DNA from: an uncultured Acidobacteriota bacterium
GTDB lineage: Bacteria; Acidobacteriota; Vicinamibacteria; Vicinamibacterales; Fen-181
Assembly: GCA_963776495.1 (NCBI GenBank)
Contig: CAVZMW010000006.1
Span: 370,435-434,434, forward strand
Reading direction: 5' to 3'
DNA length: 64,000 nucleotides
Shown: positions 2,187 through 20,722 of the stretch, piece after piece
Layout: each line of letters opens with the position of its first letter
Numbering within the stretch: position 1 is the stretch's first letter
Program-made: the position numbers and the translations under genes
The notes under the pieces: generated by a model
Seen by the model: the letters and a program-made list of their open reading frames with translations, nothing else
The model's database searches: none
Told to the model about the DNA's origin: nothing

Positions 2187-2283
2187 CGGCCGACGACTGA
2201 CGACTGACGGTTGACGGTCCTGTCACGCGTGACAGCCGGACGCGGCCGTCGGCCGGCCGTCGTCAGCCGTCAGCCGTCAGCCG
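2187..2283. repeat. Intergenic heptamer-armed palindrome (GACGACT/GACGGTT units; core CTGTCACGCGTGACAG at 2220-2235; CGTCAGC units)
   Basis: The left arm gacgactgacgactgacggttgacgg and the right arm ccgtcgtcagccgtcagccgtcagcc are approximate reverse complements. They flank a perfect 16-nt palindrome. Confidence 0.85.
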
Positions 2284-2297
2284 GTCGCGATGGGATC

Positions 2298-2326
2298 TTG
2301 ACACTGTAAACTTGCCAGTGTACAGT
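2298..2326 (+). promoter_or_regulatory. Sigma70-like promoter TTGACA-N17-TACAGT with overlapping inverted repeat (candidate TetR operator)
   Basis: TTGACA is at 2298-2303 and TACAGT at 2321-2326, with an exact 17-nt spacer, 8 nt upstream of the TetR GTG. ACTGTA...TACAGT and CACTG...CAGTG inverted repeats lie within it. Confidence 0.45.
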
Positions 2327-2333
2327 TGCCCCC

Positions 2334-3089
2334 GTGTCGCCCTACCACCACGGCGATCTCCGCCGCGCCCTCATCGACGGCGCTCTCCGCCAGATCGGGA
2401 CACGCGGCCTCGGCGGTTGGTCGCTCCGCGAGGCGGCCGCCGAGGCCGGCGTGTCGCATGCCGCCCCCTACCACCATTTCCGCGACCGCGACGACCTGGT
2501 GGCCGCGGTGGCGCGCGATGGCCTCGAGCGCCTGGACGCGCTCATGGCGGAGGGCCAGCAACGGGCCGGCGACGAGCCGCTCGACCAACTGCTGGCCATC
2601 GGCCTCGCCTACGTGCGGTTCGCCGTCGAGCGGCCCGACTACTTCGCGGCCATCGAGGGCGCCTCGGCGGCCAAGACAGCAGATCGCGCACGGCTTCCCG
2701 CCTCCGCCCGCTCGGAGTCGGTGCGGGCTACGGCGAGGCCTCGCCGTAGCGCTTCGCGCGAAGGCGGGAAGCCGTGCGCCGACGCCGCGGAGACACCCCC
2801 TCCCGGCCCGACCTGGATGCGCCTGACCGACGCGGTAGCCGCGTGCCAGCGCGCCGGGCGTCTGCCGGAGGGCGACCCGGTCATCGTGGCCGTCAGCCTG
2901 TGGTCGCTCGTGCACGGCCTGGCGGAGTTGTGGAAGACCGGGCCGCTCGCGTGCCTCCCGCAGGCCTCCGACGGCCTGCTGCCGCTCGCCGAGCGCGTGC
3001 TCCGCGCCGCGGTCGGCCAAGGTGATAGGGTGACCGGCCGACGGCCGACGGCTGACGGTCGACGGCGACGTCACACCAGCCACGCGTGA
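2334..3089 (+). CDS. TetR/AcrR-family transcriptional regulator
   Basis: The N-terminal HTH signature is HHGDLRRALIDGAL...WSLREAAAEAGVSHAAPYHHFRDRDDLVAAVA. The last ~18 codons (GRRPTADGRRRRHTSHA) are read out of the downstream heptamer repeat. Confidence 0.85.
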   Translation: MSPYHHGDLRRALIDGALRQIGTRGLGGWSLREAAAEAGVSHAAPYHHFRDRDDLVAAVARDGLERLDALMAEGQQRAGDEPLDQLLAIGLAYVRFAVERPDYFAAIEGASAAKTADRARLPASARSESVRATARPRRSASREGGKPCADAAETPPPGPTWMRLTDAVAACQRAGRLPEGDPVIVAVSLWSLVHGLAELWKTGPLACLPQASDGLLPLAERVLRAAVGQGDRVTGRRPTADGRRRRHTSHA

Positions 3090-3124
3090 CGCGACCGTCA
3101 GTCGTCAGCCGTCAGTCGTCAGCC
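3033..3124. repeat. Heptamer-armed palindrome (GACGGCx units; core region ACGCGTGAC; CGTCAGx units)
   Basis: The sequence is ccgacggccgacggctgacggtcgacgg ... cacgcgtgac ... ccgtcagtcgtcagccgtcagtcgtcagcc. It overlaps the 3' end of the TetR ORF. Confidence 0.8.
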
Positions 3125-3148
3125 TGTTTCCACGATGAGGATCCGTTC

Positions 3149-3715
3149 ATGACCGCTCTGATTCTCGATGCCTCACCAAGCCCAGACCACCCGGCCTCCC
3201 GGGCGGCGTCCGCGCTCGAGGACGTCTACCGCCGCCGCGGGGCCATCGTCGATCGCGTGCGCCTCGCCGAACTCGACATCGCCCCCTGCAACGGCTGCTT
3301 CGGGTGCTGGACGACGCGCCCTGGCGAGTGCCTGATGGCGGACGACGCCCGCGGCCTGGCGGCGAAGGTGGTGGCGGCCGACACGGTGGCCGTGGCGGGG
3401 CCGGTGGCGTTCGGCGCGTGGGGCTCGATCGCCAAGAACGCCCTCGACCGCCTCATCTGCCTGATCCTCCCGCACTTCACGACCGTGGACGGGGAGGTGC
3501 ACCACGGGCGGAGGTATGCGCGCTACCCGCGCTGGCTTGCGCTCGGGACGCTGCCGGAGCCGAACCCCAGGGCCGAGGCGATCTTCCGCCACGTGGTCGA
3601 TCGAAACGCCGTCAACCTCCACAACCCGGCGCAGGCGACGGGGATCCTCATCGGTGAGGCCGACGCCGTCCCGCTGGCCGAGGAGCTGGTGGCCGCCGTC
3701 GAGGAGGCCGTATGA
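3149..3715 (+). CDS. Flavodoxin-like fold protein (NADPH-dependent FMN reductase / iron-sulfur flavoprotein-like)
   Basis: MTALILDASPS...IAPCNGCFGCWTTRPGECLMADDA...ADTVAVAGPVAFG matches the pattern of this family. ATG at 3149 is chosen because the upstream part of the ORF is repeat-encoded. Confidence 0.7.
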   Translation: MTALILDASPSPDHPASRAASALEDVYRRRGAIVDRVRLAELDIAPCNGCFGCWTTRPGECLMADDARGLAAKVVAADTVAVAGPVAFGAWGSIAKNALDRLICLILPHFTTVDGEVHHGRRYARYPRWLALGTLPEPNPRAEAIFRHVVDRNAVNLHNPAQATGILIGEADAVPLAEELVAAVEEAV

Positions 3716-4380
3716 ACGCGCTGCTGCTCATCGGCAGTCCGAAGCCGGAGGTGAGCGCGTCGCGCTCGTTCGGCGAGGCGATGCTCGGCAGGCTCTCCGC
3801 GCGCGGAGCGGAGACGCGCACCGCCCGCGTCACGCCGGCGTTCTGCTCGCCGGAGGCGATGGACCGCCTGATGGCCGACGTCGATTGGGCGGACCTGGTC
3901 CTGCTGTCGTCGCCGGTTTACGTGGACGTGCTTCCTGCGCCGGTCATGCGGTTGCTCGAGACGTGGAGCTGCCGGGCCTCCGCCTCGGACACCACCGCCA
4001 GGCGTCCCGTGCGGCTGGCCGTGCTGGTCCAGTGCGGGTTCCCCGAAGCGCGGCACTGCGCGTCGGCCATCGAGGTGGGGGAGGAGTTCTGCCGCCAGTC
4101 GGGCGTCGGCTGGGCGGGCGCGCTGGCGTTCGGCTGCGGCGGCGCGCTGGCGGGACGAACGCCGGAGCGCTCGCCGCTGGCCAGGGTGGTGCCCGCGCTC
4201 GACGAGGCCGCCGACGCGCTGGCCGCCGGGCGCGAGATTCCCGCCGAGACCGCGCGCGTGTTCGGGAGGCAGTTCGCGCCCACCTGGGGCTACACCCTCT
4301 TCGGGGGATTCAGCTGGTGGTGGCTCGCGCGGAAGAGGGGCGGGCGCGAGCCGCTTCGCCTGCGGCGCTACAAGCAGTAA
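3712..4380 (+). CDS. Second flavodoxin-like fold protein (NAD(P)H-dependent oxidoreductase-like)
   Basis: MNALLLIGSPKPEVSASRSF...ADLVLLSSPVYVDVLPAPVMRLLE is the family pattern. An ATGA overlap with the preceding gene suggests translational coupling. Confidence 0.6.
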   Translation: MNALLLIGSPKPEVSASRSFGEAMLGRLSARGAETRTARVTPAFCSPEAMDRLMADVDWADLVLLSSPVYVDVLPAPVMRLLETWSCRASASDTTARRPVRLAVLVQCGFPEARHCASAIEVGEEFCRQSGVGWAGALAFGCGGALAGRTPERSPLARVVPALDEAADALAAGREIPAETARVFGRQFAPTWGYTLFGGFSWWWLARKRGGREPLRLRRYKQ

Positions 4381-4389
4381 TCGGGTTAT

Positions 4390-4513
4390 CTTGCGCAAGT
4401 GCGAAGTGAGAAGTACGAAGTAAGAAGTGCCGCGGTGTCACGACCGCCAACCGCTCCGTTGGCCGCCAGCCGCCAGCCGCCAGCGTCAGCCGTCAGCCGT
4501 CAGCCGTCAGCCG
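4390..4513. repeat. Composite intergenic short-unit repeat (GAAGT(A/G) units, GTGTCACG, GCCGCCA units, CGTCAGC x4)
   Basis: The sequence is gcgaagtgagaagtacgaagtaagaagt ... ggtgtcacg ... gccgccagccgccagccgccag cgtcagccgtcagccgtcagccgtcagcc. Confidence 0.8.
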
Positions 4514-4536
4514 GCGCGCCCGAATACGTCCGCCGT

Positions 4537-4815
4537 TCAGTACCCGCGCCGCCTCTGCCTGTGGCTGGCTGGCGACAGGTCGATCACCAGCGCGACCACG
4601 ATCCCGAGGACCGGCCAGAAGGTCCACTGGCCGGCGAACCAGTGCTGCACGGCGGTGTACCATAGCAGCGTCGTTGGCAGGAAGAAGAACCCGAGCACGG
4701 GCCACAGCGCGATGCTGAACATGCCCCGGAACCACGACGTGAACAGCCACAACAGCACGACGATCACTCGCGGCGCGGCCAGCGCGGCGACGACCAACAG
4801 GCACGGCATGCGCAC
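4537..4815 (-). CDS. Small integral membrane protein, function unknown
   Basis: The 92-aa product is rich in W/F/L with about 3 hydrophobic spans (LLVVAALAAPRVIVVLLWLF, ALWPVLGFFFLPTTLLWY, WTFWPVLGIVVALVI). It has a basic tail. Confidence 0.55.
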   Translation of the reverse strand: MRMPCLLVVAALAAPRVIVVLLWLFTSWFRGMFSIALWPVLGFFFLPTTLLWYTAVQHWFAGQWTFWPVLGIVVALVIDLSPASHRQRRRGY

Positions 4816-5632
4816 ACCCTCCTGCCGGACCTGGCCGGCAGCTGAGACGCGGGTCCATTATGCCGCGGTATCACCCGCGTTCGAGCGGAAATGGCGCCCC
4901 GGGCTGCTTGTCGTCCTCGCGGCGACCCTGGTTGCCGCGTGCGGCGGGCGCGTCGTGCAGGCCCCTCCCGCCGCCGACCACCACATGCACCTCCAGAGCG
5001 CGCGCACGGTGAGCGTGCTGCTCAGGCTGAAGCAGGCGTTCAAGGAGCCGGCCTCGCCGGCCGATCGCCAGGTGCTCGGCGCGGAGGACGCCGTGGCCGC
5101 CCTCGACGCCGCCGGCATCCGCCGCGGGGTCGTCCTGTCCGGCGCCTTCCTCCTCGGCACCTCCGACATCGTCGTCGCCGACGAACGCCGGATGGTCGCC
5201 GACGAGAACGCGTGGACCGCAAAGGAGGCGGCACGCTACCCCTCGCGGCTGGTCGGCTTCTGCAGCGTCAACCCGCTGAAGGACTACGCCGACTCCGATG
5301 TGGAACACTGCGCCGCGATCGGGCTGCGCGGGTTGAAGCTCCACTTCACGAGCTCGGCCGTGGACCTGTCGGACGCGGACCACGTGGCGCGCCTGAGGCG
5401 CGTGCTCGGCACGGCCAACCGGCTCCGCCTGCCGGTGCTCGTCCACCTGCGCACCCGGGCGATGGACTACGGCGTGCGCGAGGCCAACGTGTTCCTCGGC
5501 CACGTGCTGTTCGGCAGCGACTGGCCGGCCATGACGCCGGCCGACACGGCGGCGGCCATTCGCAGGTCGCTGCCGCTCCGGCCCGCCGAGATCGAAACCA
5601 TCTTCGCCAACCGGGCACCATACCTGAGGTAG
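4808..5632 (+). CDS. Amidohydrolase-family (TIM-barrel metal hydrolase) lipoprotein, possibly internally shortened
   Basis: It has a lipobox-like LVAACGG, a metal motif HHMH, GLKLHFTS, LPVLVHLR and a terminal LFGSDWP. The start was moved to ATG 4808 because the upstream ORF portion overlaps the minus-strand membrane gene and the repeat. Confidence 0.7.
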   Translation: MRTPSCRTWPAAETRVHYAAVSPAFERKWRPGLLVVLAATLVAACGGRVVQAPPAADHHMHLQSARTVSVLLRLKQAFKEPASPADRQVLGAEDAVAALDAAGIRRGVVLSGAFLLGTSDIVVADERRMVADENAWTAKEAARYPSRLVGFCSVNPLKDYADSDVEHCAAIGLRGLKLHFTSSAVDLSDADHVARLRRVLGTANRLRLPVLVHLRTRAMDYGVREANVFLGHVLFGSDWPAMTPADTAAAIRRSLPLRPAEIETIFANRAPYLR

Positions 5633-5699
5633 CGGGCGGCGCGCCGGGGCGACGATATAATGGTGGTCGCCATCAGCGCCGCCCTTGTGAGGAGTCTCC

Positions 5700-6842: not shown

Positions 6843-6846
6843 ACGG

Positions 6847-6953
6847 CTTGCGCCTTACGGCCTACGCCATACGCCTCACGCCCGTGTCACGCCGTCAGGT
6901 GTGATCCTGCCGTCAGCCGTCAGCCGTCAGCCGTCGGCCGTCAGCCGTCAGCC
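6847..6953. repeat. Composite repeat: GCCTTACG-type octamers + GTGTCACG + CGTCAGC heptamers
   Basis: The sequence is gcgccttacggcctacgccatacgcctcacgcc cgtgtcacg ... cgtcagccgtcagccgtcagccgtcggccgtcagccgtcagcc. It lies between convergent genes. Confidence 0.8.
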
Positions 6954-6960
6954 GAGGGAT

Positions 6961-8168: not shown

Positions 8169-10346
8169 ATGAAGAAGATCGCTCCTGTCTTACTTATCGT
8201 CTGCACGGCGCTCGTCCTGCAGGCCGGCCAGAATACCGAGGTCGCTTCCTGGGAGCGGCAGGCCCAGAGCGTCACCATCACTCGCGACACCTGGGGCATC
8301 CCCCACGTCTACGGCAAGACCGACGCCGACGCCGTGTTCGGCGTCATCTACGCGCAGGCCGAGGACGACTTCAACCGGGTCGAAACCAACTACCTCAACT
8401 CGATGGGGCGGCTGGCCGAGGCCGAAGGGGAGTCGGCCGTCTACCGCGACCTGCGGATGAAGCTGTTCATCGACCCCGTGGACCTGAAGGCGCAGTACCA
8501 GAAGAGCCCGGCCTGGCTGAAGGCGCTCATGAACGCCTGGGCCGACGGCCTGAACTACTACCTGTACACCCACACCAACGTCCACCCTCGGGTCGTCACC
8601 CGGTTCGAGCCGTGGATGGCGCTCAGTTTCAGCGAAGGGAGCATCGGCGGGGACATCGAGAAGGTCAATCTCGGGCAGCTCGAGGCCTTCTACGGCCGCG
8701 GCCCGGAGGCCAGGCCCGCCCCGGAGGCGGATCCGGGCGGCGGCGACCGCGAGCCGAGGGGGTCGAACGGCGCCGCCATCGCCCCGGCCAACACGACGGG
8801 CCACCACGCGCTGCTGCTCATCAACCCCCACACCTCGTTCTTCTTCCGCGCCGAGGCGCAGATGGTGAGCAACGAGGGGCTCGACGCGTACGGCGCGCTC
8901 ACCTGGGGGCAGTTCTTCATCTACCAGGGGTTCAACGACCGCGCCGGCTGGATGCACACCTCGAGCGCCGTGGACGACAGCGACGAGTACCTCGAGACGG
9001 TGGTCAGGAAGGGCGACGCCTACTTCTACCGCTACGGGGCCGAGGAGCGCCCGGTGAAGGCCGAGGTCGTCACCGTCCCGTACAAGACCGCCACCGGGAT
9101 GGCGACGCGGCAATTCACCGTCTACCGGACCGAGCACGGACCCGTCGTCCGGAAGGCCGGCGACAAGTGGGTGAGCTTCGCCATCATGCAGGAGCCCCTC
9201 AAGGCGCTGATGCAGTCCTTCAGCCGGACCAAGGCCCGCACCTACAAGGCCTTCCGCGAGACGATGGAGCTGCACACCAACTCGTCGAACAACACCATCT
9301 ACGCGGACGCCGACGGCAACATCGCCTATTTCCACGGCAACTTCATCCCGCGGCGCGACCCGAAGTTCGACTGGACCCGCCCGGTGGACGGCAGCGACCC
9401 GGCGACCGACTGGCACGGCGTGCTCTCGGTGGACGAGTCGCCGAAGCTGCTCAACCCGGCGAGCGGCTGGCTCTACAACACCAACAACTGGCCCTGGACC
9501 GCCGCCGGCGCGAGCAGCCCGAAGAAGGCCGACTTCCCGGCCTACGTGGACAGCGGGAGCGAGAACCCGCGGGGGCTGCACGCCATCCGGGTGTTCGACC
9601 ACCGCAAGGACTTCACGCTGGACGGCCTGCTCGCGGCCGCGTTCGACAGCTACCTGCCGACGTTCGGCGAGGACATCCCGGCGCTCGTCAAGGCCTGGGA
9701 CGGCCTGCCCGCCGGCGACGCGCTCAAGGCGAAGACGGCGGACGCGGTCGCCGTCCTGCGGGCGTGGGACTTCCGCTGGGCCGGGTCGTCGGTGGCCACC
9801 TCGCTGGCCGTCTACTGGGGCGAGGACGCCGGCCGCCGCCTGTCGGCCGAGATTCGCAGGTCGGGCAAGTCGGCCGACGACTACATCGCCGAGGGGGCCG
9901 CGCCGCGGACGCTCGTCGAGTCGCTGGCCGCCGCGTGCGACCGCCTGTCGGCCGACTTCGGCACGTGGCGCACGGCGTGGGGCGACATCAACCGCTACCA
10001 GCGCAACAACGGCGACATCGTCCAGCGCTTCGACGACGCGGCGCCGAGCATCCCGGTGCCCTTCCCGTCGGCGCGGTGGGGATCGCTGGCGTCGTTCGGC
10101 GCGCGGACCTACCCGGGGACGAAGAAGATGTACGGGACGAGCGGCAACAGCTTCGTGGCGGTGGTGGAGTTCGGCGACCGCGTGCGCGCGCGGGCGGTGT
10201 CGGCGGGCGGTGAGAGCGGCGACCCGACGTCGCCGCACTTCGGCGACCAGGCCGCGCGCTACGCGAGCGGCAACCTGCGGGAGGTCTACTTCTACCCGGA
10301 GCAGCTCCGGGGGCACGTCGAGAGGGAATACCATCCGGGGAAGTAG
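8169..10346 (+). CDS. Penicillin/AHL-acylase family Ntn hydrolase (peptidase S45)
   Basis: The signal peptide is MKKIAPVLLIVCTALVLQA. It has TITRDTWGIPHVYGKTDADAVFG...AEDDF, and a spacer followed by the GSNGAAIAP nucleophile context. Confidence 0.85.
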   Translation: MKKIAPVLLIVCTALVLQAGQNTEVASWERQAQSVTITRDTWGIPHVYGKTDADAVFGVIYAQAEDDFNRVETNYLNSMGRLAEAEGESAVYRDLRMKLFIDPVDLKAQYQKSPAWLKALMNAWADGLNYYLYTHTNVHPRVVTRFEPWMALSFSEGSIGGDIEKVNLGQLEAFYGRGPEARPAPEADPGGGDREPRGSNGAAIAPANTTGHHALLLINPHTSFFFRAEAQMVSNEGLDAYGALTWGQFFIYQGFNDRAGWMHTSSAVDDSDEYLETVVRKGDAYFYRYGAEERPVKAEVVTVPYKTATGMATRQFTVYRTEHGPVVRKAGDKWVSFAIMQEPLKALMQSFSRTKARTYKAFRETMELHTNSSNNTIYADADGNIAYFHGNFIPRRDPKFDWTRPVDGSDPATDWHGVLSVDESPKLLNPASGWLYNTNNWPWTAAGASSPKKADFPAYVDSGSENPRGLHAIRVFDHRKDFTLDGLLAAAFDSYLPTFGEDIPALVKAWDGLPAGDALKAKTADAVAVLRAWDFRWAGSSVATSLAVYWGEDAGRRLSAEIRRSGKSADDYIAEGAAPRTLVESLAAACDRLSADFGTWRTAWGDINRYQRNNGDIVQRFDDAAPSIPVPFPSARWGSLASFGARTYPGTKKMYGTSGNSFVAVVEFGDRVRARAVSAGGESGDPTSPHFGDQAARYASGNLREVYFYPEQLRGHVEREYHPGK

Positions 10347-10348
10347 AG

Positions 10349-10437
10349 AGGCTCCAGGCTCCGGGCTTCGGGCTCCGGGCGGCGCCGCGCGCGTCACGCG
10401 TGACAGGCCCGAAGCCTGAGGCCAGTGGCCTGAAGCC
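10349..10437. repeat. Octamer-armed palindrome (GGCTCCGG-type units; core GCGTCACGCGTGACAG; GCCTGAAG-type units)
   Basis: The arm ggctccaggctccgggcttcgggctccggg lies 5' of the core at 10391-10405. The arm gcccgaagcctgaggccagtggcctgaagcc lies 3' of it. The element sits between convergent gene ends. Confidence 0.85.
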
Positions 10438-10442
10438 GCCCG

Positions 10443-12701
10443 CTAGGCCCCGTTCGCGGGCTCCGCCGTCGCCGCTATGGCCGGCCCCGAGCGGGCCAGC
10501 GCGTTGTTGATCGCCCGCAGGCCGAGCCACCACTGCGACTTCGGCCGCCGGTTCGCCTCGTCCATCATCCGCGGCAGGTCCTCGAGCGGGTGGAACTGGA
10601 CGTGGCCGCCGATCAAGCCGATGAACGACGCGTTCGGCCGCTCCTCGGCGGCTTGCTCGATCAGGTAGCCCACCGAGCGGCGCGCCAGCTTGGTCGCCTG
10701 GATCCGGTCGAACGGCGACGGGTCGCCTCCCTGCTGCAGGTGGCCGAGGATGCTCTCGCGCACGGCGAACGCGCCGCCGCTCTCCTCCTCGAACAGCGCT
10801 CGCATGAAGTTGGTGTCGTACGTCGGGTTCGCGTCCTCGTTGCGGATGATGAGGCCCAGGCGCTTCCCCTCGCGGAACCCCCGGACGAGGACATCCAGGT
10901 CCTCCTTCATCGACTTGAGCGTGACCCCTTCCTCGTGCAGGTAGACGCGCTCGGCGCCCGTGGCCAGGCCGCTCATCAGCGCCAGGTAGCCGCACCGCCG
11001 GCCCATCACCTCGACGATGTAGCAGCGCCGCTCGGCGACGGCCGACTGCTTGATCTTGTCGACGACGGTGACGATGCTGTTGAGCGCCGTGTCGGCGCCG
11101 ATGCTCAGCTCGGTGCCGGGCAGGTTGTTGTCGATCGTGGCGGGCAGGCAGACCAACGGGATCTCGAACGCCGGGAAGTTGGCCCGCTCCTGGAGGAGGC
11201 GGTAGGCCCCCTGGTAGCCTTCCCACCCGCCGACGACGAGCAGCCCTTCGATCCCGCGCCGCTCGATCGTCTTGGCGATGGCGTGGAAGTCGGGGCCGTT
11301 CGGGACCACCCGGTTGGTGCCGAGCTCCGAGCCGCCGAGCGGCGCCCAGCCGTTCACGCTCATCCACGCCATCGGCTGCAGGTCGTCGTCGATGAGCCCC
11401 TGAAAGCCGCGGCGGACGCCGAAGATCTCGTGGCCGTGGTCGATCGCAATGCGCACGGCCGCGCGAACGGCGGTGTTCATACCCGGGGCTGGCGCGCCGA
11501 CGTTGAGGATCGCCAGCCGGAGCCGCCGCTGGCCCGGCTGGGGCGGGTGGGGCAGGGCGCGCAGCAGCGTCTGCAGCGTGCCGGCCGCGGTGACGAAGGC
11601 GTGGCCGCGCAGCTCCATGGCCTGTGCAAACTCGTGCGCCTCGAGCCGCGAATTGATCTCGCGTGTTTTGGCCACGCACTCGGTCAGCGGGATGCGGACC
11701 ACGCGGTTGCCGCTGACGCCGATCACCTGGGATTGCTCGTCGGCCTCGCCCGCGACGAGCGATTCGACGGCGGCGTGGCCGACGATCGTGCCGAGGTTGC
11801 GGTCGTAGGCGCTTGGCGCGCCCCCCCGCTGGACGTGGCCGAGCACCGTGATGCGGACCGACTGCCCGAGCCCCGCCTCGAGCACCTGCTGCAGCCGCTC
11901 GCTTGTGATGGGACGCCCCTGCCGGTCGGTCGCCCCCTCCGAGAGGACCACGATCGCGTCGCGGCGTCCGGCCGCGCGGCCGGCCTTGAGCGCCGCCACC
12001 ATCTCGGTCTCCCAGTCATCCGACTCCGGCGGCTGTTCCGGCAGGAACACCCAGTCGGCGCCGGTCGAAAGCGCGCCCATCAGCGCGAGGTAGCCGCAGT
12101 GCCGGCCCATCACCTCGACGACGAACGTCCGCTGGTTGCTCGAGGCCGTGCTGGAGATGGCGTCGATCGCCTCGGTGATCCGGTGCAGCGCCGTGTCGGC
12201 GCCGATCGTCATGTCGGTGCCGTACGCGTCGTTGTCGATCGAGCCGACCAGGCCGACCACCGTCAGGCGCGGGTGGCGGAGCGCGGTCTCGACCGGGATC
12301 GCCTGGCTGGTCACCAGCTCGCCGACCAGATCCGGCCACTCTCGGCGAAACTGGTCGGCGCCGGTGAGGCTGCCGTCGCCGCCGATGACGACGAGGCTGT
12401 CGATCCCGGCGTCGAGGAGCGTGCGCGCGGCGGTCAGCCGCCCCTCGCGCGTCCGGAACTTGTCGGACCGCGCCGTGCCGAGAATCGTCCCGCCGCGGTG
12501 GATGACGCCGCCGACCGAGTTCCACGCCATCGGGCGGACGCGCTCGCGCCCTTCGATGAGCCCGTTGAACCCTTCGTGGATCCCGAAGACCTCGAGGCCG
12601 TGGTCGAGCGCCGTCCGCACCACGGCCCGGATTGCCGCGTTCATCCCCGACGCGTCGCCGCCGCTCGTCAGGACGCCGATTCGCTTGTTCGCCAACGCCA
12701 T
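10443..12701 (-). CDS. pfk: ATP-dependent 6-phosphofructokinase, tandem two-domain (eukaryote-type, ~750 aa)
   Basis: The N half carries GVLTSGGDASGMNAAIR, GGDGSLTGA, GSIDNDAYGTD, VVEVMGRHCGYLAL and LGHVQRGG. The C half carries LNVGAPAPGMNTAVR, VVGGWEGYQGA, PATIDNNLPGTE, VEVMGRRCGYLAL and LGHLQQGGDPSPFDR. Confidence 0.9.
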   Translation of the reverse strand: MALANKRIGVLTSGGDASGMNAAIRAVVRTALDHGLEVFGIHEGFNGLIEGRERVRPMAWNSVGGVIHRGGTILGTARSDKFRTREGRLTAARTLLDAGIDSLVVIGGDGSLTGADQFRREWPDLVGELVTSQAIPVETALRHPRLTVVGLVGSIDNDAYGTDMTIGADTALHRITEAIDAISSTASSNQRTFVVEVMGRHCGYLALMGALSTGADWVFLPEQPPESDDWETEMVAALKAGRAAGRRDAIVVLSEGATDRQGRPITSERLQQVLEAGLGQSVRITVLGHVQRGGAPSAYDRNLGTIVGHAAVESLVAGEADEQSQVIGVSGNRVVRIPLTECVAKTREINSRLEAHEFAQAMELRGHAFVTAAGTLQTLLRALPHPPQPGQRRLRLAILNVGAPAPGMNTAVRAAVRIAIDHGHEIFGVRRGFQGLIDDDLQPMAWMSVNGWAPLGGSELGTNRVVPNGPDFHAIAKTIERRGIEGLLVVGGWEGYQGAYRLLQERANFPAFEIPLVCLPATIDNNLPGTELSIGADTALNSIVTVVDKIKQSAVAERRCYIVEVMGRRCGYLALMSGLATGAERVYLHEEGVTLKSMKEDLDVLVRGFREGKRLGLIIRNEDANPTYDTNFMRALFEEESGGAFAVRESILGHLQQGGDPSPFDRIQATKLARRSVGYLIEQAAEERPNASFIGLIGGHVQFHPLEDLPRMMDEANRRPKSQWWLGLRAINNALARSGPAIAATAEPANGA

Positions 12702-12705
12702 GCTC

Positions 12706-12787
12706 CTTGCGCCTTACGCCTCACGCCTTACGCCTCACGCCTTACGCCTTGCGCCTTACGCCTTGCGCCTTACGCCTTACGCCTCGC
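12706..12787. repeat. About ten tandem GCCTTACG/GCCTCACG/GCCTTGCG octamers abutting the pfk start codon
   Basis: The sequence is ttgcgccttacgcctcacgccttacgcctcacgccttacgccttgcgccttacgccttgcgccttacgccttacgcctcgc. It lies in the divergent pfk/speA region. Confidence 0.9.
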
Positions 12788-12940
12788 GGCGCAGGGCGCT
12801 GGGCGGAGGTCGGACCTCGGCCGGCGGGCCAGCGCCGGCGCTCGACGTATGTTACTGCTCTTTTCTTTTCATGCCGCCCGTGACACTGTAAACTCAGTCG
12901 CGAGCACTCGGGACGCGGACAACCGCAAGGGAGAACGTCG

Positions 12941-14851: not shown

Positions 14852-14852
14852 A

Positions 14853-14899
14853 AGGCCCAAGGCTCAGGGCTCACGGCTCAAGCCAAGAGGCTCGAGGCT
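14853..14899. repeat. Short-unit repeat (GGCTCA(A/G)G units) between convergent speA and SYLF genes
   Basis: The sequence is aggcccaaggctcagggctcacggctcaagccaagaggctcgaggc. Confidence 0.7.
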
Positions 14900-15614: not shown

Positions 15615-15674
15615 ACGATATCCCCTCGAGATGGTCGGGCGGAAAGACCGACTCTTCCCTACGGCCGCCTGACG

Positions 15675-15715
15675 TTCTCATGAACCAACATAGATCGGCG
15701 GCAGGGTTCACGAGA
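15675..15715. promoter_or_regulatory. Inverted repeat TTCTCATGAACC-N17-GGTTCACGAGAA upstream of the SYLF gene (candidate operator)
   Basis: It is an 11/12 complementary 12-mer pair in an AT-richer stretch 60-100 nt upstream of the SYLF start. It is adjacent to a TATATT box on the minus strand. Confidence 0.3.
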
Positions 15716-15789
15716 ATATATCCATCGGGGTACATCTCCCTTTGCCGCGCAGACCCGCGGTTCAGGTTCGCAGGCTCAGACCGCACAGC

Positions 15790-15830
15790 CGTACTTCGTC
15801 CTTCCTCCTTCGCACGATCGCACGATCGCG
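15790..15830. repeat. Short-unit repeat (ACTTCGT / CGCACGAT units) downstream of vapC
   Basis: The sequence is gtacttcgtccttcctccttcgcacgatcgcacgatcgcg. It shares the 22-mer cttcgcacgatcgcacgatcgc (15808-15829) with 16596-16617. Confidence 0.8.
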
Positions 15831-15836
15831 AGCTAC

Positions 15837-16223
15837 CTAGATTGCCCGGCTTCGAGTCGCCTTTGTGATCTGACCGTCCAGCGCCACCAGGTCCGCACCG
15901 AGCATCCCCGCCAGCCACACGTAGGCCGCGTCGTAAGCGGTGAGGCCGGTGTCGAGCGCCAGGCGGGTCAGGTCGGCCGTGTCCACCTCGACCCAGGTGA
16001 TGCCGGCTCGCGGCCCGAACGCCTCGGCGAGCGCCAACAAGATCACGCGCGCCTGCTCCGGCTGTCGCCGGATCTTCTTCCGCGCGACGTTGGCCAGCTC
16101 GAACTTCAACAACAGGGGAGCGGCGACGGCCGCACCCTCCAGCCGGCGCGCGACCTCATCCGCCCCGGGTTCGTTGAAGGCGATGGCGGCCAGCGCGGAC
16201 GCATCGACGACGACGCGGGTCAC
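15837..16223 (-). CDS. vapC: Type II toxin VapC (PIN-domain ribonuclease)
   Basis: MTRVVVDASALAAI... carries the conserved acidic PIN positions (VVDAS, FELAN, AYDAAY). It has a 4-nt overlap with the upstream antitoxin gene. Confidence 0.85.
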   Translation of the reverse strand: MTRVVVDASALAAIAFNEPGADEVARRLEGAAVAAPLLLKFELANVARKKIRRQPEQARVILLALAEAFGPRAGITWVEVDTADLTRLALDTGLTAYDAAYVWLAGMLGADLVALDGQITKATRSRAI

Positions 16224-16453
16224 CGGCGGTCCCTGGACTGGCGCACGAGGCGTGCCGCGTTGGCGGGCGTCTTGACGCCGAGCGCCCGGACACGCTCGAG
16301 CAGCGCACGGGCCTCGAACGGGGTCTCGCGGGCCGCGTCCTCGAGGATCGACATCAACTCTCCCTGCAAGGAGCGGTGATTGCGGTGCGCGCGCGCCCGG
16401 ATCGTTGCGGCGAGCTCGTCGGGAACGGTCTTGATGGACAGCGTGACAGGCAT
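16220..16453 (-). CDS. vapB: Type II antitoxin (ribbon-helix-helix, FitA/VapB-like)
   Basis: MPVTLSIKTVPDELAATIRARAHRNHRSLQGELMSILEDAA is a typical RHH antitoxin N-terminus. ATG at 16453 is chosen; the longer ORF extends into the repeat. Confidence 0.75.
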   Translation of the reverse strand: MPVTLSIKTVPDELAATIRARAHRNHRSLQGELMSILEDAARETPFEARALLERVRALGVKTPANAARLVRQSRDRR

Positions 16454-16496
16454 CGATGGCTCCAGAATGGATCCATTATGGAGCCAACGCCTCGCG

Positions 16497-16630
16497 AGGC
16501 TCAAGGCCCAAGCCAGGAGGCTCAAGACTCAAGACTCAAGACTCAGGGCTCAGGGCCATACCTCGAACTTCGTACTTCCCACTTCCCACTTCGTACTTCG
16601 CACGATCGCACGATCGCAAGATCGATCGAT
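16497..16630. repeat. Composite short-unit repeat (GGCTCAAG/GACTCAAG units, ACTTCCC/ACTTCGT units, CGCACGAT units)
   Basis: The sequence is ggctcaaggcccaagccaggaggctcaagactcaagactcaagactcagggctcaggg ... acttcgtacttcccacttcccacttcgtacttcgcacgatcgcacgatcgcaagatcgatcg. Confidence 0.85.
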
Positions 16631-16632
16631 GT

Positions 16633-17142
16633 TCAGAGGGAGTCCCGCAGCAGGTCCCTGTACGACCCCGGCGTCGTCTTCTTCGGCAACTGCAGCCGCT
16701 CGCAGAGGTCAGCCATCAGCCGGGCCGACCCGCGGCCCGCGCGCTCCATCAGCACTTCGATCTCGACGAACGTGCCGAGGCCGGCCACCCGGTCGAGGTG
16801 GATCCGCGCGCCGTCGACCAGAAACACCTCGCGCGTCTTGCGGACGACCGTCTCGACGCCGAGTGCCGCGGTCAGCAGGCGCAGGGCCGCATCGGCTTCG
16901 CTCACCGCCCATTTGAGGTAGCGGCTTTCTCGCGCGCCCTTCCGCTTCGGGCGCTCGTAATAGATGAGCTCGCTCGTGCCGCCACGGACCACCCGCAGCT
17001 TGAGGTAGCCGCGGTCCACGCGAAAGTAGTGGTCGGCCTGGCGCAGGACGGCCGCCCGCCTGCAGCCGGGAATGGCGGCCGCCCGCCGCCGGTACGGCGC
17101 GAGCGACGCCACCTGCACCTTGATCTCGAGATTGTGGGGCAC
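16633..17142 (-). CDS. CYTH-domain protein (class IV adenylyl cyclase CyaB-like / triphosphate tunnel metalloenzyme)
   Basis: (V)PHNLEIKVQV...ADHYFRV..GYLKLRV...ELIYYERP...REVFLVDGARIHLDRVAGLGTFVEIEV matches the EXEXK and CYTH beta-barrel pattern. GTG at 17142 follows GAAGGAGGAAG. Confidence 0.75.
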   Translation of the reverse strand: MPHNLEIKVQVASLAPYRRRAAAIPGCRRAAVLRQADHYFRVDRGYLKLRVVRGGTSELIYYERPKRKGARESRYLKWAVSEADAALRLLTAALGVETVVRKTREVFLVDGARIHLDRVAGLGTFVEIEVLMERAGRGSARLMADLCERLQLPKKTTPGSYRDLLRDSL

Positions 17143-17200
17143 GGGGTCTTCCTCCTTCGGTGAACGGCGGGGCTGAAGCCCCGCCCTACACTCGGTCACG

Positions 17201-17230
17201 CCTGAGCCCCGAGCCTTGAGCCTTGAGCCC
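17201..17230. repeat. Short-unit repeat (GAGCC(T/C)T units); apparent target of the IS insertion
   Basis: cctgagccccgagccttgagccttgagccc lies immediately left of the IS terminus. ctgagccc recurs immediately right of the other terminus (18753-18760). Confidence 0.7.
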
Positions 17231-17234
17231 TTCT

Positions 17235-18747
17235 ATGAAGCGGCCTCTCGCGTCAAGCGGTGGATTTCGTCCGTTCCGCTCGTCGTGTCCTCGCGTGCGT
17301 TCCCCCCGAAGACAAACGTCCAGTGAGCGCGCGGCTCACCCCTCACCCGCGGGCGGGTGAGGCGCGCGCGCACGGCCGCCGGGGCATCCACGCCGTGGGC
17401 TCACCTGTCGAGTACGCTCAATCCGCGAGCGTGTCTCACCCTTCTATTCGTGCTCAGCATGGGCGGCCGTGGCCGCCGGCACATGAGAAGGTCCGAGAGC
17501 GGGGGCGGCGCCATCTGAGCCTCGACACTGACCGTCTGTCACGGGCTCACTCGCGCTCACCCCCGGATGACGCCCCCGGTGTCGTCGCCAAGCGTCCCCG
17601 CGAGTCGCCGGGTCTACGCCGCCAGGGCGCCCGCGTCCGTCCTCGTCCGTGGGGCGGTCCGGTCAAACGCGGTCCCATCGCGCCACATCGCATAGAGGAT
17701 GCGCGCCAACCGCCGCGCCAGCGCCACCGCGGCGATCCGCTTCCCCCGGCGCGCGGCCAAGGCCACGGCCCACGTGTGGAGCGGCCAGTCCTGGGTCTCG
17801 CGGCCGCACAGGATGCCCCAGCCCGCTTGCACCAACAGCCATCGCAGACGCGACGGGCCGGCTTTACTGATATGGCCCGCGCGCCGCCGATCCCCGCTGC
17901 TGTCGTCCCTCGGCGCCAGCCCCAGATAGCTCACCACCTGCCCGGCGTGCGTAAACCGCGTCGGCGTATCCAGCGTCGCCACGAACGCCGCGCTCGTCAC
18001 CGGCCCGATGCGCGGGGCCGTCTGCAGGCGTTGCATATCCGCATCCTGCGCGACGTGCGCGGCCAGTTGCGCGTCGGCGCCCGCCAGGGCGACCTCTAGC
18101 CCGTCCAGCACCATCAGCAACGGCGCCACCGTCGCCGCGAGATCCGGCGGGAGGGCCACCGCCCGCAGTCGCGCCGCAAACCCCTCCGCGGCGCCTGACG
18201 CCACCCGCAGCCCCTCCGCCCGCACCGCCGCCCGCAGCGTCGCGATCAGCCGCGTGCGCGTGCGGACCAGCGCCTCCCGCACCGTCAGCGCCTCCCGCAC
18301 CACCCGCCGTCCGCGCGACACCCGATGCACGGGCCGATACGTGCCCCGCAGACTCGCCTCCGCCAACGCCGCCGCGTCCCGGGGGTCATTCTTGTGTCGC
18401 CCTCCGCGTCGACGCGGATACATCGGCGCGTAACTCGGGTCCACCACCCACACCCGATGCCCCAGCCCCTCCACCACCTGCGCCACCCACTCGCTCTCCG
18501 TGCTGGCCTCGATCAGGACCTGGCCCGGCGCCTGGTGGCCCAGCATGGCCTCAAACCGGTCCCGCCGGGTCTGGATCCGCTGCTGCCGCACCTCCCCCGT
18601 CGCGTCGTCCAGCCAGCAGATTTGACTTTCCCGTTTGTGTAGATCGATGCCAATATGCTGCACGGTCGATCTCCTCTCTGCGCCTTGAGCGCGTTACTCA
18701 ACTGTGGAGCGGTCACGCTACCACGCTGAGGAGATCGGCCGCTTCAT
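17235..18747 (-). mobile_element. IS110-family insertion sequence (IS1111-like architecture), about 1.5 kb
   Basis: The 11-nt terminal inverted repeats are ATGAAGCGGCC (17235-17245) and GGCCGCTTCAT (18737-18747). They enclose a DEDD-type IS110 transposase gene, an 84-nt upstream end and a 379-nt non-coding end downstream of the transposase. Confidence 0.75.
17614..18663 (-). CDS. IS110-family transposase
   Basis: MQHIGIDLHKRESQICWLD... is the DEDD N-terminal motif. The C-terminal region has LQTAPRIGPVTSAAFVATL...FTHAGQVVSYLGLAPRDDSSGDRRRAGHISKAGPSRLRWLLVQA. Confidence 0.92.
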   Translation of the reverse strand: MQHIGIDLHKRESQICWLDDATGEVRQQRIQTRRDRFEAMLGHQAPGQVLIEASTESEWVAQVVEGLGHRVWVVDPSYAPMYPRRRGGRHKNDPRDAAALAEASLRGTYRPVHRVSRGRRVVREALTVREALVRTRTRLIATLRAAVRAEGLRVASGAAEGFAARLRAVALPPDLAATVAPLLMVLDGLEVALAGADAQLAAHVAQDADMQRLQTAPRIGPVTSAAFVATLDTPTRFTHAGQVVSYLGLAPRDDSSGDRRRAGHISKAGPSRLRWLLVQAGWGILCGRETQDWPLHTWAVALAARRGKRIAAVALARRLARILYAMWRDGTAFDRTAPRTRTDAGALAA

Positions 18748-18856
18748 CCTATCTGAGCCCGTAGTCTACCCTGTTGGCCCTCCGGCCCTCCTTCGGATAA
18801 CATTTGACAATTGGGCGTGTTCGCCCGGACGTTAACGACGGAGCCCTGACAGTCCC

Positions 18857-20035
18857 ATGAGCAAGAACTACATCTTCTCGTCCGAGTCGGTCGGCGAGGG
18901 CCATCCCGACAAGGTGTGCGACACGATTTCCGACGCGGTGCTCGACGCCTGCCTCGCCCAGGACAAGTACAGCCGCGTGGCCTGCGAGACCTACGCCAAG
19001 AGCAACCTCGTCGTCATCGGCGGCGAGATCACGACCAAGGCCCGGCTCGATTTCAACGAGATCGCGCGCGAAGCGATCCGCGGCATCGGGTATACCCACG
19101 ACGATGACGTGTTCCACGCCGACAAGGTGCTCATCATGAACGCCATCACGTCGCAGTCGCCCGACATCGCGCAGGGCGTGGACGCGCGGGCGGCGGTGGG
19201 CAAGGAGAAGGCGGAGCAGGGCGCGGGCGACCAGGGGCTGATGTTCGGCTACGCCTGCAACGAGACGCCGGAGCTGATGCCGGCGCCGATCATGTACGCC
19301 CACCAGCTCGGCGCCGAGCTGACGCGCGTGCGCAAGACCGGCAAGGTGGCCTGGCTTCGACCCGACGCGAAGAGCCAGGTGTCGGTGCGCTACGAGAACG
19401 ACCAGCCCGTGGAGATCACCAGCGTCGTCATCTCGACGCAGCACGCGGCGAACGCGAGCCACCGCACGATCCGGAACTTCTGCATCGAGGACATCGTCAG
19501 GCCGATCCTGCCGGCGCACCTGATCACCCGCAGGACCAAGATGCTCATCAACCCGACGGGCCGCTTCGTGGTCGGCGGGCCGCAGGGAGACACCGGCCTG
19601 ACGGGCCGCAAGATCATCGTCGACAGTTACGGCGGCATGGGCCGGCACGGCGGCGGCGCCTTCTCGGGCAAGGACCCGAGCAAGGTGGACCGCAGCGGCG
19701 CTTACATGGGGCGCTACGTCGCGAAGAACATCGTCGCGGCGGGCCTGGCCACCAGCGCCGAGATCCAGCTCGCCTACGCCATCGGCTATCCCGACCCGGT
19801 CAGCGTCTGCGTCAACACCTTCGGCACCGCGCTGCCCGGGCTGACCGACGAGCAGATCGAGAAGGCCGTGAGCGAGGTGTTCAGCTTCAAGCCGGCGCAC
19901 ATCATCAAGCAGCTCGACCTGCTGCGGCCGATCTACGGCAAGACGACCAACTACGGCCACTTCGGCAAGAACGACCCGGACCTGACCTGGGAGCGGACCG
20001 ACAAGGTCAATGCGCTCAAGAGGGCGGTGAGGTAG
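18857..20035 (+). CDS. metK: S-adenosylmethionine synthetase
   Basis: The product has [49 protein letters not shown] and [16 protein letters not shown]. Confidence 0.97.
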
Positions 20036-20047
20036 CGGCACGTTCAG

Positions 20048-20130
20048 TGGAGTGGCCAGTTGCCGTTTGTCAGTTGTCAGTCTGTCACGCGTGATCGACT
20101 GACCACGGGCAACTGACGACTGGCCACTAC
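20048..20130. repeat. Heptamer-armed palindrome (core CTGTCACGCGTGATCG) between convergent metK and the DUF1810 gene
   Basis: The arm gtggccagttgccgtttgtcagttgtcagt pairs with the arm actgaccacgggcaactgacgactggccac. The DUF1810 stop codon lies inside the right arm. Confidence 0.85.
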
Positions 20131-20567
20131 TCCGGCTTGCCCGCCTTCACGAGCCTGAGCGTCTCCGCATCCCGCTTCCCACCGAAATACCCCTCCAGCA
20201 CCCTGCCGAAGACCGACCCGGGCTGAGAGGCCAGGTCGAACAGCGTCATCGAGGAGTGCAGCTTCAGGTCGTCCGGGTAGTCGAAGATGTCGGACGCCGT
20301 GCGGCCGGGGAGGCCGAGCAGCGCGCCCGCGCATTCGGCCAGCCGCGCGCCGAGGACCGGGTGGTCCAGGTACGCGCGGGCCTCGTCCAGGCTCTTGATG
20401 GCGAATTGCCGCGCGGTGGGACTCGAACCAAGTCCCTCGAATTGCGGGAAGACGAACCACATCCAGTGCGTTCGCTTGCGGCCTCCCCGCAGTTCCGCCA
20501 GGGCTGCCGGGTAGACGCCTTCCTGCGCGGCCAGGAAGCGCTGCAGATCGAAGGGATCGGGGGACAT
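20127..20567 (-). CDS. DUF1810-family protein
   Basis: DPFDLQRFLAAQEGVYPAALAELRGGRKRTHWMWFVFPQ..GLGSSPTA..FAI.SLDEARAYLDHPVLG is the characteristic DUF1810 pattern. Confidence 0.8.
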   Translation of the reverse strand: MSPDPFDLQRFLAAQEGVYPAALAELRGGRKRTHWMWFVFPQFEGLGSSPTARQFAIKSLDEARAYLDHPVLGARLAECAGALLGLPGRTASDIFDYPDDLKLHSSMTLFDLASQPGSVFGRVLEGYFGGKRDAETLRLVKAGKPE

Positions 20568-20597
20568 CGGGCCACCGTCGGGGGACAGAGTACCGAT

Positions 20598-20722
20598 GCG
20601 TCAGTGGCCAGGTGCCAGTGGTCTGCGGTCAGTCTGTTCGCGTGACAGACTGGCAACCGGCAACTGACGACTGGCCACTACGCGATACCGCGTACTCTGG
20701 TACTTCCTACTTCTTACTTCTT
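20598..20722. repeat. Heptamer-armed palindrome (core CTGTTCGCGTGACAG) plus TACTTC(C/T) units
   Basis: The arm gtcagtggccaggtgccagtggtctgcggtcagt pairs with the arm actggcaaccggcaactgacgactggccac, followed by tacttcctacttcttacttcttac. The 23-mer ggcaactgacgactggccactac is shared with 20108-20130. Confidence 0.85.

Follow-up and report, generated by a model that had tools for sequence, protein, structure and literature searches.

The window analysed here is a 64-kb stretch (64,000 nt) of one contig from a Vicinamibacteria-type soil acidobacterium; its G+C content is about 70%, and all window counts below are limited to it. The closest named relatives of its acylase are 'Vicinamibacterales' and 'Acidobacteria' metagenome-assembled genomes (MAGs). 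Five elements at or between gene ends in the window, here called E1 to E5, each consist of two inverted arrays of 7-nt units meeting at a palindromic core, (CT)GTCACGCGTGAC(AG). A first-pass annotation had described five loci of one shared hairpin architecture; all five are present at the coordinates it gave, and the description holds, with RNA fold z-scores of -3.5 to -7.5.

E1 (2187-2283) lies between the divergent M14 peptidase (- strand) and TetR (+ strand) genes, at the 5' ends of both, and comprises a left array (TGACGRC)x4 at 2192-2218, the core CTGTCACGCGTGACAG at 2220-2235 and a right array (GCCGTCA)n at 2245-2283 (z = -4.3 on the + strand, -7.5 on the - strand). E2 (3033-3124) separates the co-directional TetR gene (open reading frame, ORF, 2334-3089) and FMN reductase gene (start 3149); its (CCGACGG)x4 and (CCGTCAG/TCGTCAG)x4 arms flank an interrupted core, GTCAC-ACCAGCCAC-GCGTGAC, at 3070-3090 (z = -5.5 and -7.2). 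E3 (10349-10437) begins 3 nt past the acylase stop codon, in the gap between the convergent acylase and PFK genes, with a left arm (GGCTCCR)x4, the core GCGTCACGCGTGACAG at 10391-10406 and a GCCTGAR-like right arm (z = -3.5 and -4.1). E4 (20051-20128), between the convergent metK and DUF1810 genes, has YAGTGGC/CAGTTGY arms around the core CTGTCACGCGTGATCG at 20082-20097 (z = -5.9), and its outer end GCCACTAC reads GTAGTGGC on the - strand. E5 (20603-20679), between the co-directional DUF1810 and peptidase M3 genes, is a diverged copy of E4 with the core CTGT-TCGCGTGACAG at 20634-20648 (z = -5.4); the two are copies of one palindrome of roughly 80 nt. The original extent of E5, 20598-20722, took in too much: the element is real, and the (TACTTCT)x3.7 run at 20701-20726, which holds the peptidase M3 stop codon, is a separate array.

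The elements are 78-97 nt long and their stems are tandem heptamers. Units of 7-8 nt had been proposed; the 7-nt unit stands, and the supposed 8-nt unit GGCTCCGG is a misparse of GGCTCCR. Four of the five loci are downstream of ORFs, between co-directional or convergent genes, E1 being the exception, and four of the five elements start at or beside a stop codon. The earlier placement at gene 3' ends therefore survives, and its 'often convergent' applies to two of the five (E3 and E4). The elements had also been said to run into coding sequence. E2 does so, encoding the C-terminal tail of TetR and its stop codon TGA (3087-3089), which lies inside the E2 core; the DUF1810 stop codon shares just the last 2-3 nt of E4. 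A candidate GTAG tag, GTAGTGGCC, stands at one outer end of E4, of E5 and of one element from a related genome (L116A) and is absent from E1 and E2. The GTAG in E3 and L116A coincides with a conserved stop codon and may be coincidental.

Core, folding and arm pairing

With at most one mismatch, GTCACGCGTGAC has four matches in the window where 0.73 are expected, a number reached in 2 of 100 shuffles. Its inner 10-mer, TCACGCGTGA, has four exact matches against 0.16 expected, and none of 100 shuffles reaches that count. Three of these four are at hairpin apices and the fourth (55139) is within a flagellin gene; the core variants of E2 and E5 are also positioned exactly at hairpin apices. The variants that break the palindrome comprise a 9-nt interruption in E2, a deletion in E5, and GTGAT and CCTGAC forms. 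All five inverted same-unit array pairs of the window contain the full core, which is found in none of the roughly 11 other array loci.

Folded as RNA on either strand, E1 to E5 give imperfect hairpins of 35-45 bp with free energies of -39 to -76 kcal/mol. Each fold was scored as a z-score against 200 shuffles on both strands, and an equal fold arises in at most 1 of 200, so that the RNA folding check suggested in the first-pass annotation came out in favour of the hairpins. Ranked among the inverted repeats of the window, E4 is first, E2 second, E1 third, E5 fifth and E3 twenty-third.

We scored arm complementarity as the left arm against the reverse complement of the right arm, with 1000 mononucleotide shuffles and 1000 permutations of the heptamer units within one arm as controls. 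The observed score is reached by 0 of 1000 mononucleotide shuffles and, when the units of the right arm are permuted, by 340 to 1000 of 1000 permutations. Because a permuted arm pairs equally well, there is no base-by-base covariation, nor any covariation in unit order. The first-pass annotation had argued from complementary arms to selection on structure; arms that pair no better than permuted units are the outcome it had itself set against that argument, and the argument falls. The left arm of E1 in fact pairs better with the right arm of E2 (score 24) than with its own (19). Across nine core-bearing elements, including those from other genomes described below, the mean own-arm score is 13.8 against 5.2 between elements, and high cross scores occur within a unit family only. 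The suggested covariation analysis is thus negative beyond the level of the unit family: what covaries is which family fills both arms. A hairpin of inverted tandem units would keep pairing after any slippage by whole units, which may explain the persistence of the design.

Elements and arrays in related genomes

The elements had been taken as self-contained. They are instead a subset of an excess of simple sequence repeats (SSRs) that is specific to period 7: a scan of the window for tandem arrays with periods of 4 to 12 gave 19 period-7 arrays (664 nt) against at most one for each other period. The relatives compared for heptamer arrays and cores, about 1.04 Mb of sequence whose loci and contigs carry L-numbers (L001, L116, L203 and so on), have 31 period-7 arrays against 2-8 for periods 5, 6, 8 and 9, a period-7 density tenfold below that of the window. 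More than 15 unrelated unit families occur in the window (for example GCCGTCA, CCTTACG, GGCTCAR, ACTTCNN, TACTTCT, CTCAAGA, TCGGGGA and GCCGCAA). By inspection, the window arrays are intergenic or reach a few codons into gene ends, and their settings include 5' ends, 3' ends and the interior of operons. GTGACA (6 against 0.16 expected within 40 nt of a window array), CGTGACA (5 against 0.14) and GCGTGAC (8 against 0.29) are the top enriched words beside these arrays; no such enrichment is seen beside the arrays of the relatives.

Parts of the core also accompany arrays that lack a complementary partner. Degenerate half-cores had been placed at 4434, 6884 and 24200; GTGTCACG is indeed found at the first two, and the third, near 24200, is the different sequence GCGTGACGGCTGTGACACC. 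At 4397-4513, between two operon genes, (AAGTNNG)x4.6 is followed by GTGTCACG (4435-4442) and then by (GCCGCCA)x3 and (GCCGTCA)x4. At 6843-6954, in a convergent gap, a (CGCCTTA-like)x5 array is followed by GTGTCACG (6884-6891) and (GCCGTCA)x6.6, and the (GCCTTAC)n-GGTGTCAC module of this locus recurs in L207. At both loci the left and right arrays are of different units and are not complementary. At 24199-24243, GCGTGACGGCTGTGACACC is followed by (GCCGCAA)x3.6. We also considered a monomer hypothesis in which every array carries a half-core 'head' in fixed orientation, and, because the orientation is inconsistent (at the flank of the insertion sequence, IS, of the window, and in L207 and L169), retain it solely within the in-situ reading discussed below.

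Core-bearing elements recur in two other genomes. In L116, an uncultured Acidobacteriota MAG, an element at 1722, directly after tuf, has the form (TAGTGGY)n-CTGTCACGCGTGACAG-(GCYAGCC)n with the exact 16-mer, and a second element at 2055, 330 nt downstream and after tRNA-Trp, has the core GTCACCCGTGAC. A third L116 hairpin (3381), after rplK, has a left arm identical to that of E3 at 26 of 27 positions and the apex GGCATTGCC. L203 has core elements at 4596, after tuf (GTCACGCCTGAC), and at 9353, upstream of gltX (GTCACGCGTGAT, a variant of the E4 core); after its tRNA-Trp there is no core but the same GGAKTCA arms as in L116, and the NusG proteins of the two are 97% identical. Some inverted same-unit pairs without a core are also present in L116 and L203. 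In total there are nine core-bearing elements with approximately four arm classes in three genomes: five copies in 21 kb of the window, two in 8 kb of L116 and two in 20 kb of L203. YAGTGGC arms occur with the core in all three. The claim that a near-palindromic core is shared while the arms differ is thus borne out, the same centre being found at the apices and again in L116 and L203. Core elements are absent from about 1 Mb of other, more distant relatives, including 80 acylase-anchored metagenome loci (acylase identity 63-75%).

A scan for the exact 16-mer core across 596 Gb of species-representative (GTDB) genomes returned 114 matches, against about 139 expected by chance on our own estimate, and one of the matches (L116) has the present architecture. 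Most of the others are an Amycolatopsis coding site or clusters of a GTGAC motif in proteobacteria. In L059, L062, L074, L095, L105, L108 and L114 (Proteobacteria and Actinomycetota) the 16-mer lies within dense GTGAC/GTCAC clusters such as TGTCACGCGTGACGGGTGTGACAGG, which look like iterons or like arrays bound by regulators in mobile elements and have no relation to the hairpins described here.

That there is no family at all, and that GC-rich SSRs gave rise to the hairpins and the core coincidences by chance, is extremely improbable. The near-chance frequency of the 16-mer in the GTDB scan (with its estimated expectation) and the 2 of 100 shuffles that match the 12-mer count with one mismatch would suit such a reading, but it is already contradicted by the 10-mer count, the position of the core at the exact apex in five of five hairpins, the 27- to 37-fold enrichment of array-adjacent words, and the independent occurrence of the same architecture with the core in L116 and L203.

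Comparison of the same intergenic sites across related genomes, another check proposed at the outset, showed that the arrays persist and the centre is swapped. At the E2 site of L001 and L202, GCCGTCR heptamers also encode the TetR tail, in direct orientation around a different hairpin; unit by unit, their (CCGTCGG)n is complementary to (CCGACGG)n, the left array in the window. The TetR and FMN reductase genes, which E2 separates in the window, overlap in L001. DUF1810 and peptidase M3 abut or overlap in L003 and L004, so that E5 together with the TACTTCT array amounts to an insertion of about 150 nt. At the E3 site, L200 (acylase 89% identical) has GGCTCYN heptamers with the core missing, L201 (88%) has CGAAGTA/TACTTCG arrays, and L001 and L003 have unrelated simple hairpins, of which L003 reuses its own downstream of metK. 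This L003 hairpin, GGCAACCCTAAAGGGTCGCC, is present as two copies of opposite orientation (12179-12244 and 18457-18502) in the convergent gaps equivalent to those of E3 and E4, and is a genome-specific REP-like family (REP, repetitive extragenic palindromic).

In the ribosomal protein cluster, after rplK, tuf and tRNA-Trp, a hairpin starting at the stop codon is present in four of four genomes (L116, L203, L204, L206), and at each of these sites three of the four use inverted heptamer arrays; after rplK these three differ in their unit (GGCTCCR, GAATTGA and GGGAYGA). Downstream of the acylase, a comparison of 82 loci with coding controls found folds with z < -2 in 26% of the loci against 4% of the controls. 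The same arm is found with and without the centre, and the same centre with approximately four arm families. Arms and centre are separate modules, and turnover of the centre by gain, loss or replacement outpaces that of the arrays.

Origin and role of the elements

We give about even credence to the following reading, which is the one we prefer: the five loci belong to a lineage-restricted family of intergenic palindromic repeats, similar to REP elements and to bacterial interspersed mosaic elements (BIMEs) and built on heptamer SSRs, in a Vicinamibacteria-type acidobacterium. Such elements would spread within a genome by copying, through non-autonomous transposition or gene conversion between hairpins, and their arrays would then change fast by whole-unit slippage and templated homogenisation. 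Identical arms at unrelated loci and genomes (E3 and L116; E4 and E5) argue for copying between loci rather than a purely local origin. Typical traces of a miniature inverted-repeat transposable element are lacking: neither E2 nor E5 is flanked by a direct duplication at its insertion point as set against L001 and L003, and the ends of the sole IS of the window, ATGAAGCGGCC, are unrelated.

Formation in situ without mobility is distinctly unlikely as a whole. Each element would then be of local origin: a break or fold-back at a half-core ...CTGTCACG beside an array, its CG/CG end being self-complementary, would be followed by snap-back or template-switch synthesis that duplicates the array in inverted form and creates the palindromic junction, so that complementarity would need no selection. 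The full core is indeed confined to loci whose two arms share a unit family, and arm complementarity goes no further than that family. Half-cores stand at the inner end of single arrays (4435, 6884 and about 24200, and the (GCCTTAC)n-GGTGTCAC module of L207), and the window's (CCGACGG)n complements the (CCGTCGG)n of L001 unit by unit, as templated conversion would yield. However, the orientation of half-cores relative to arrays is inconsistent, and near-identical arms, including the order of unit variants, recur at unrelated loci and genomes (E3 and L116 3381; E4 and E5; YAGTGGC in three genomes), which points to copying.

As to function, under the preferred reading of a REP/BIME-like family the elements would be co-transcribed with the upstream gene and probably act as 3'-end or intercistronic RNA hairpins, as REP elements do; protection from 3' exonucleases, attenuation of read-through and translational uncoupling are possible roles, and some copies may merely be tolerated insertions. 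The retention of a hairpin at fixed intercistronic sites while its sequence turns over suggests a structural role, most simply that of a REP-like RNA hairpin. The earlier proposal of a structural role, as RNA or DNA hairpin, therefore stays plausible on this ground, and no longer on that of arm complementarity.

A more specific function, that of dedicated factor-independent bidirectional terminators for which heptamer arrays are merely raw material, is unlikely. E3 and E4 do lie between convergent genes, a stop codon stands at or beside the start of four of the five elements, four genomes have hairpins at matching intercistronic positions although the sequence has been replaced, and strong folds are enriched downstream of the acylase. 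But no T/U tract follows any element, and a scan for intrinsic terminators found 7 where shuffles predict 6.3. E1 stands between divergent 5' ends; operons whose orthologous genes overlap are the setting of E2, E5 and the 4397-4513 locus; and the L116 and L203 elements are inside the tuf-rpmG-secE-nusG-rplKA cluster, where full termination would do harm.

We regard as very unlikely the proposal that GTCACGCGTGAC is the site of a dimeric DNA-binding protein, such as a nucleoid-associated protein, a segregation or organisation factor or a global regulator, with the arrays as unrelated SSRs that share intergenic space. Sites of this kind include parS, a 16-bp palindrome, and matS, a 13-bp palindrome. 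A perfect palindrome of 12-16 bp is kept across unrelated arms and three genomes, the five copies fall in a 19-kb stretch and leave the other 43 kb without one, and the clusters of the same motif in other phyla (L059, L062, L095, L114) look like protein-binding iterons. Yet every core of the window sits exactly at the symmetry centre of an inverted array pair and none at an intergenic site devoid of arrays, the sole array-free match to TCACGCGTGA being in coding sequence. At the orthologous sites of very close relatives the core is readily missing or exchanged, its palindrome is broken in variants (E2, E5, GTGAT, CCTGAC), and the E2 core lies inside a coding tail.

Three further resemblances or candidate sites were rejected. 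A likeness of the core to parS, matS and the heptamer of recombination signal sequences (RSS) was dismissed, as the sequences do not match. As for a TetR operator, the conserved operator/promoter is instead the palindrome TTGACACTGTAAACTTGCCAGTGTACAGT at 2298-2326, upstream of the TetR gene; it is common to L001 and L202, unrelated to the core, and probably the TetR autoregulatory site. The word GTGACACTGTAAACT at 12879, finally, belongs to a conserved speA leader. This leader of about 55 nt (ATGTTACTGCTCTTTTCTTTTCAYGCCGC..GTGACRCTGTAAACTC), at 12845-12900 upstream of the arginine decarboxylase gene, is conserved in all relatives (L001 14555-14610, L002, L003); it has no Rfam match and may be a regulatory RNA or promoter.

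Several observations weigh against the reading of a mobile REP/BIME-like family with a role in RNA: (i) The exact 16-mer has about chance frequency in the GTDB genomes, which implies that the family is narrow or poorly assembled in MAGs. (ii) Most relatives have no exceptional hairpin downstream of the acylase (median z = -0.7). (iii) All 19 arrays and all cores are within the first 34 kb of the window. (iv) The arms show no unit-by-unit mirrored covariation. (v) A 3'-end role is implausible for E1, given the divergent genes on either side of it. (vi) Gene pairs with translational coupling in relatives are split by E2, by E5 and by the 4397-4513 locus, a pattern closer to tolerated insertion than to function. 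(vii) We infer the RNA role solely from position and hairpin persistence. (viii) No enzyme that could mobilise the elements came to light: in Pfam scans, 40 of the larger window ORFs gave no Y1 transposase of the RAYT type (Y1_Tnp), the sole transposase in them being of the IS110/IS1111 type.

Regarding known systems, the first-pass annotation knew of no described equivalent, which was too strong, since the convergent arrays of Xanthomonas (PMC4692102) and REP/BIME dimers (PMC3733652) come close. The general surplus of intergenic heptamer SSRs in bacteria and the STRR heptamers of cyanobacteria are related cases. In Xanthomonas, according to Rehm et al. 2015 (PMC4692102, citing Mrazek et al. 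2007), heptamer SSRs are over-represented and convergent inverted (GGGAATC)n pairs lie near ORF 3' ends, on average 28 nt from the upstream ORF; X. campestris pv. campestris has 70 convergent array pairs among 186 repeats. The parallels in that account (PMC4692102) are that period-7 units are specifically over-represented, about 90% of them intergenic there and near the 3' end of the upstream ORF, that a large share of them are pairs of arrays on opposite strands able to form stem-loops or cruciforms, and that length and sequence turn over fast between related genomes. Same-unit opposite-strand pairs are found here in E1 to E5 and also in L173, L131, L199, L201 and L204. What sets the present elements apart from the published description is that Xanthomonas has essentially one G-rich G-quadruplex (G4) unit, whereas there are dozens of unrelated units here, most of them unable to form G4, that no conserved palindromic centre is reported there, and that the phylum here is Acidobacteriota.

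Work on REP/BIME and on REPIN (PMC3733652, PMC3116915) describes genome-specific intergenic palindromes, mostly downstream of ORFs in co-directional or convergent settings and sometimes inside genes, to which the present elements are similar. REP dimers lie downstream of ORFs and carry GTAG and CGTC tags (PMC3733652); the GTAG at one outer end of E4, E5 and L116A may recall the former. Further likenesses are a frequent arrangement as inverted dimers, which gives larger hairpins, suggested functions in stabilising mRNA and in termination, and targeting by IS110/IS1111 elements. In contrast to the REP stems described there, of 20-40 bp of unique sequence, the present elements are of 80-100 nt with stems of tandem 7-nt units, the conserved part is the apex and not the stem or tag, and no RAYT is among the 40 scanned window ORFs. 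Direct TAACTGA heptamer arrays in Beggiatoaceae, Cyanobacteria and Bacteroidetes (MacGregor 2015, PMC4679880) are likewise abundant intergenic arrays with a suspected post-transcriptional role, and CAACTGA units occur in E4 and E5. Unlike the present elements, they are described there as one fixed unit in direct orientation, just upstream of start codons and without a palindromic centre.

The claim that the loci are not CRISPR was correct, as they contain no regularly spaced direct repeats with unique spacers. Rfam gave no matches to the elements at gathering thresholds, only sub-threshold look-alikes of microRNA precursors. The small dispersed repeats (SDR) of Nostoc (Elhai et al. 2008, Genome Res) are of about 20 nt, hairpin-capable and reportedly found within tandem heptameric repeats. 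Their insertion inside heptamer arrays parallels a swap of centre with the arrays kept; unlike the present elements they are of other sequence, cyanobacterial, and reportedly not described as the symmetry centre of inverted arrays. A literature search for Vicinamibacteria returned no description of such elements. In the parts available of the published heptamer and REP work (PMC4692102, PMC4679880, PMC3733652) no conserved palindromic centre joins inverted arrays of variable heptamers, and none is from Acidobacteriota. We rate as new here the form, a REP-like repeat with variable heptamer arms and a shared palindromic centre, the closest precedent being the GGGAATC pairs of Xanthomonas.

Insertion sequence, further arrays and other repeats

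An IS1111-type IS (17230-18752, - strand), with a DEDD transposase (17617-18663) and the subterminal inverted repeats ATGAAGCGGCC, is inserted inside a (GGCTCAR) heptamer array. Copies with a 90% identical transposase are present in three other contigs (L207 1600-3400, L208, L209), and in each of the four copies one flank is GGCTCAG and the opposite flank GGCTCAAGGC. The 387-nt non-coding region of the IS (17230-17616) repeats both junction words, GGCTCAGAT at 17513 and ATAGAAGGG at 17439. These internal copies match the seekRNA/bridge-RNA guide logic known for the IS110/IS1111 family (PMC11187229, PMC11208160). Heptamer arrays are therefore also specific targets of an IS, which is likewise true of REPs in Pseudomonas and E. 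coli. Another (GGCTCAR) array (14852-14880), directly past the arginine decarboxylase stop codon, contains GGCTCAGGGCTCA at 14861, an uninterrupted candidate target.

A bolder proposal, to which we attach a small probability, is that the elements form a previously undescribed, 'SSR-built' class of structured repeats. A hairpin-forming or strand-switching activity would make or spread the palindromic junction (GTCAC GC GTGAC), the heptamer stems would be slippage-proof, the elements would replace ordinary 3'-end hairpins across Vicinamibacteria, and the arrays would also be genome-wide landing pads for RNA-guided IS1111/IS110 elements. If this were true, the bacterial heptamer SSR excess would gain a testable functional and mechanistic model; an intergenic excess has been noted since 2007 (in Xanthomonas, cyanobacteria and others). 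The lineage is an unusually clear system for such work, with arrays tenfold denser than those of its relatives, hairpins around one palindrome, and mutual replacement at fixed sites of conserved operons (tuf-rpmG-secE-nusG-rplKA). Whether such repeats arise by slippage, template switching or mobility, and whether they protect mRNA 3' ends or attenuate, become directly testable questions. For Acidobacteriota MAGs the repeats also matter in annotation, and perhaps in assembly: they extend or rewrite protein C-termini, as in the TetR tail, insert in frame, split operons and offer a target to an RNA-guided IS.

Further arrays of the window have other forms. (CCTTACG)x11 at the 5' end of PFK (12701-12784) has neither a core nor a nearby inverted partner, and (CTCAAGA)n, (ACTTCNN)n and (TCGCACGA)n arrays lie at 16521-16630. 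The last heptamer array of the window, (TCGGGGA)x5.7 at 33807-33846, resembles the G-rich heptamers of Xanthomonas and Nostoc and is the only one of this unit type in the window. The remainder, 34001-64000, has several intergenic gaps and no array; it contains CHAT/TPR and caspase-like genes, DUF900, a TonB receptor, MotAB and a flagellar cluster. In the relatives, inverted heptamer pairs surround unrelated centres in L173 (AATGTTG/CATTCAA), L201 (CGAAGTA/TACTTCG), L204 (GGGAYGA), L131 and L199.

Two (AAGGCGT) arrays in direct orientation (22989-23047 and 23164-23195) enclose, at 23051-23115, a dispersed repeat roughly 65 nt long, GGCGCCGGTCGTGGCCCGGTTCGTCGCGCCGGGCTCAGCTCGGCGGACCTCGCC with its complement. 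The same repeat is present twice in the 4.4-kb contig L200 (1-60 and 3575-3640) and looks like a second small mobile element residing in heptamer arrays. A VapC (PIN)/FitA-like ribbon-helix-helix (RHH) toxin-antitoxin pair at 15837-16525 (- strand) is bracketed by direct ACTTCG..CGCACGATCGCACGATCGC copies (15793-15832 and 16563-16630). This pair, a Ysc84-domain gene and the IS make up about 3 kb of inserted DNA when the window is set against the speA-CYTH-metK synteny of L001-L003.

Within the TetR ORF, a nested hairpin at 2686-2779, with 25-nt outer arms that are 92% complementary and the inner palindrome CTACGGCGAGGCCTCGCCGTAG, corresponds to 17 aa that are inserted in frame into the TetR linker and missing from L001 and L202; it is a REP-like element tolerated within a gene. 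Related GAAGGCGGGC/GCCCGCC hairpins occur in intergenic DNA of L002 and L003. Two adjacent tandem duplications at 45085-45344, a 68-nt unit x2 (100% identity) and a 54-nt unit x2.3 (95%), lie in a low-GC (63%) stretch of about 2.5 kb without clear genes (43.7-46.3 kb).

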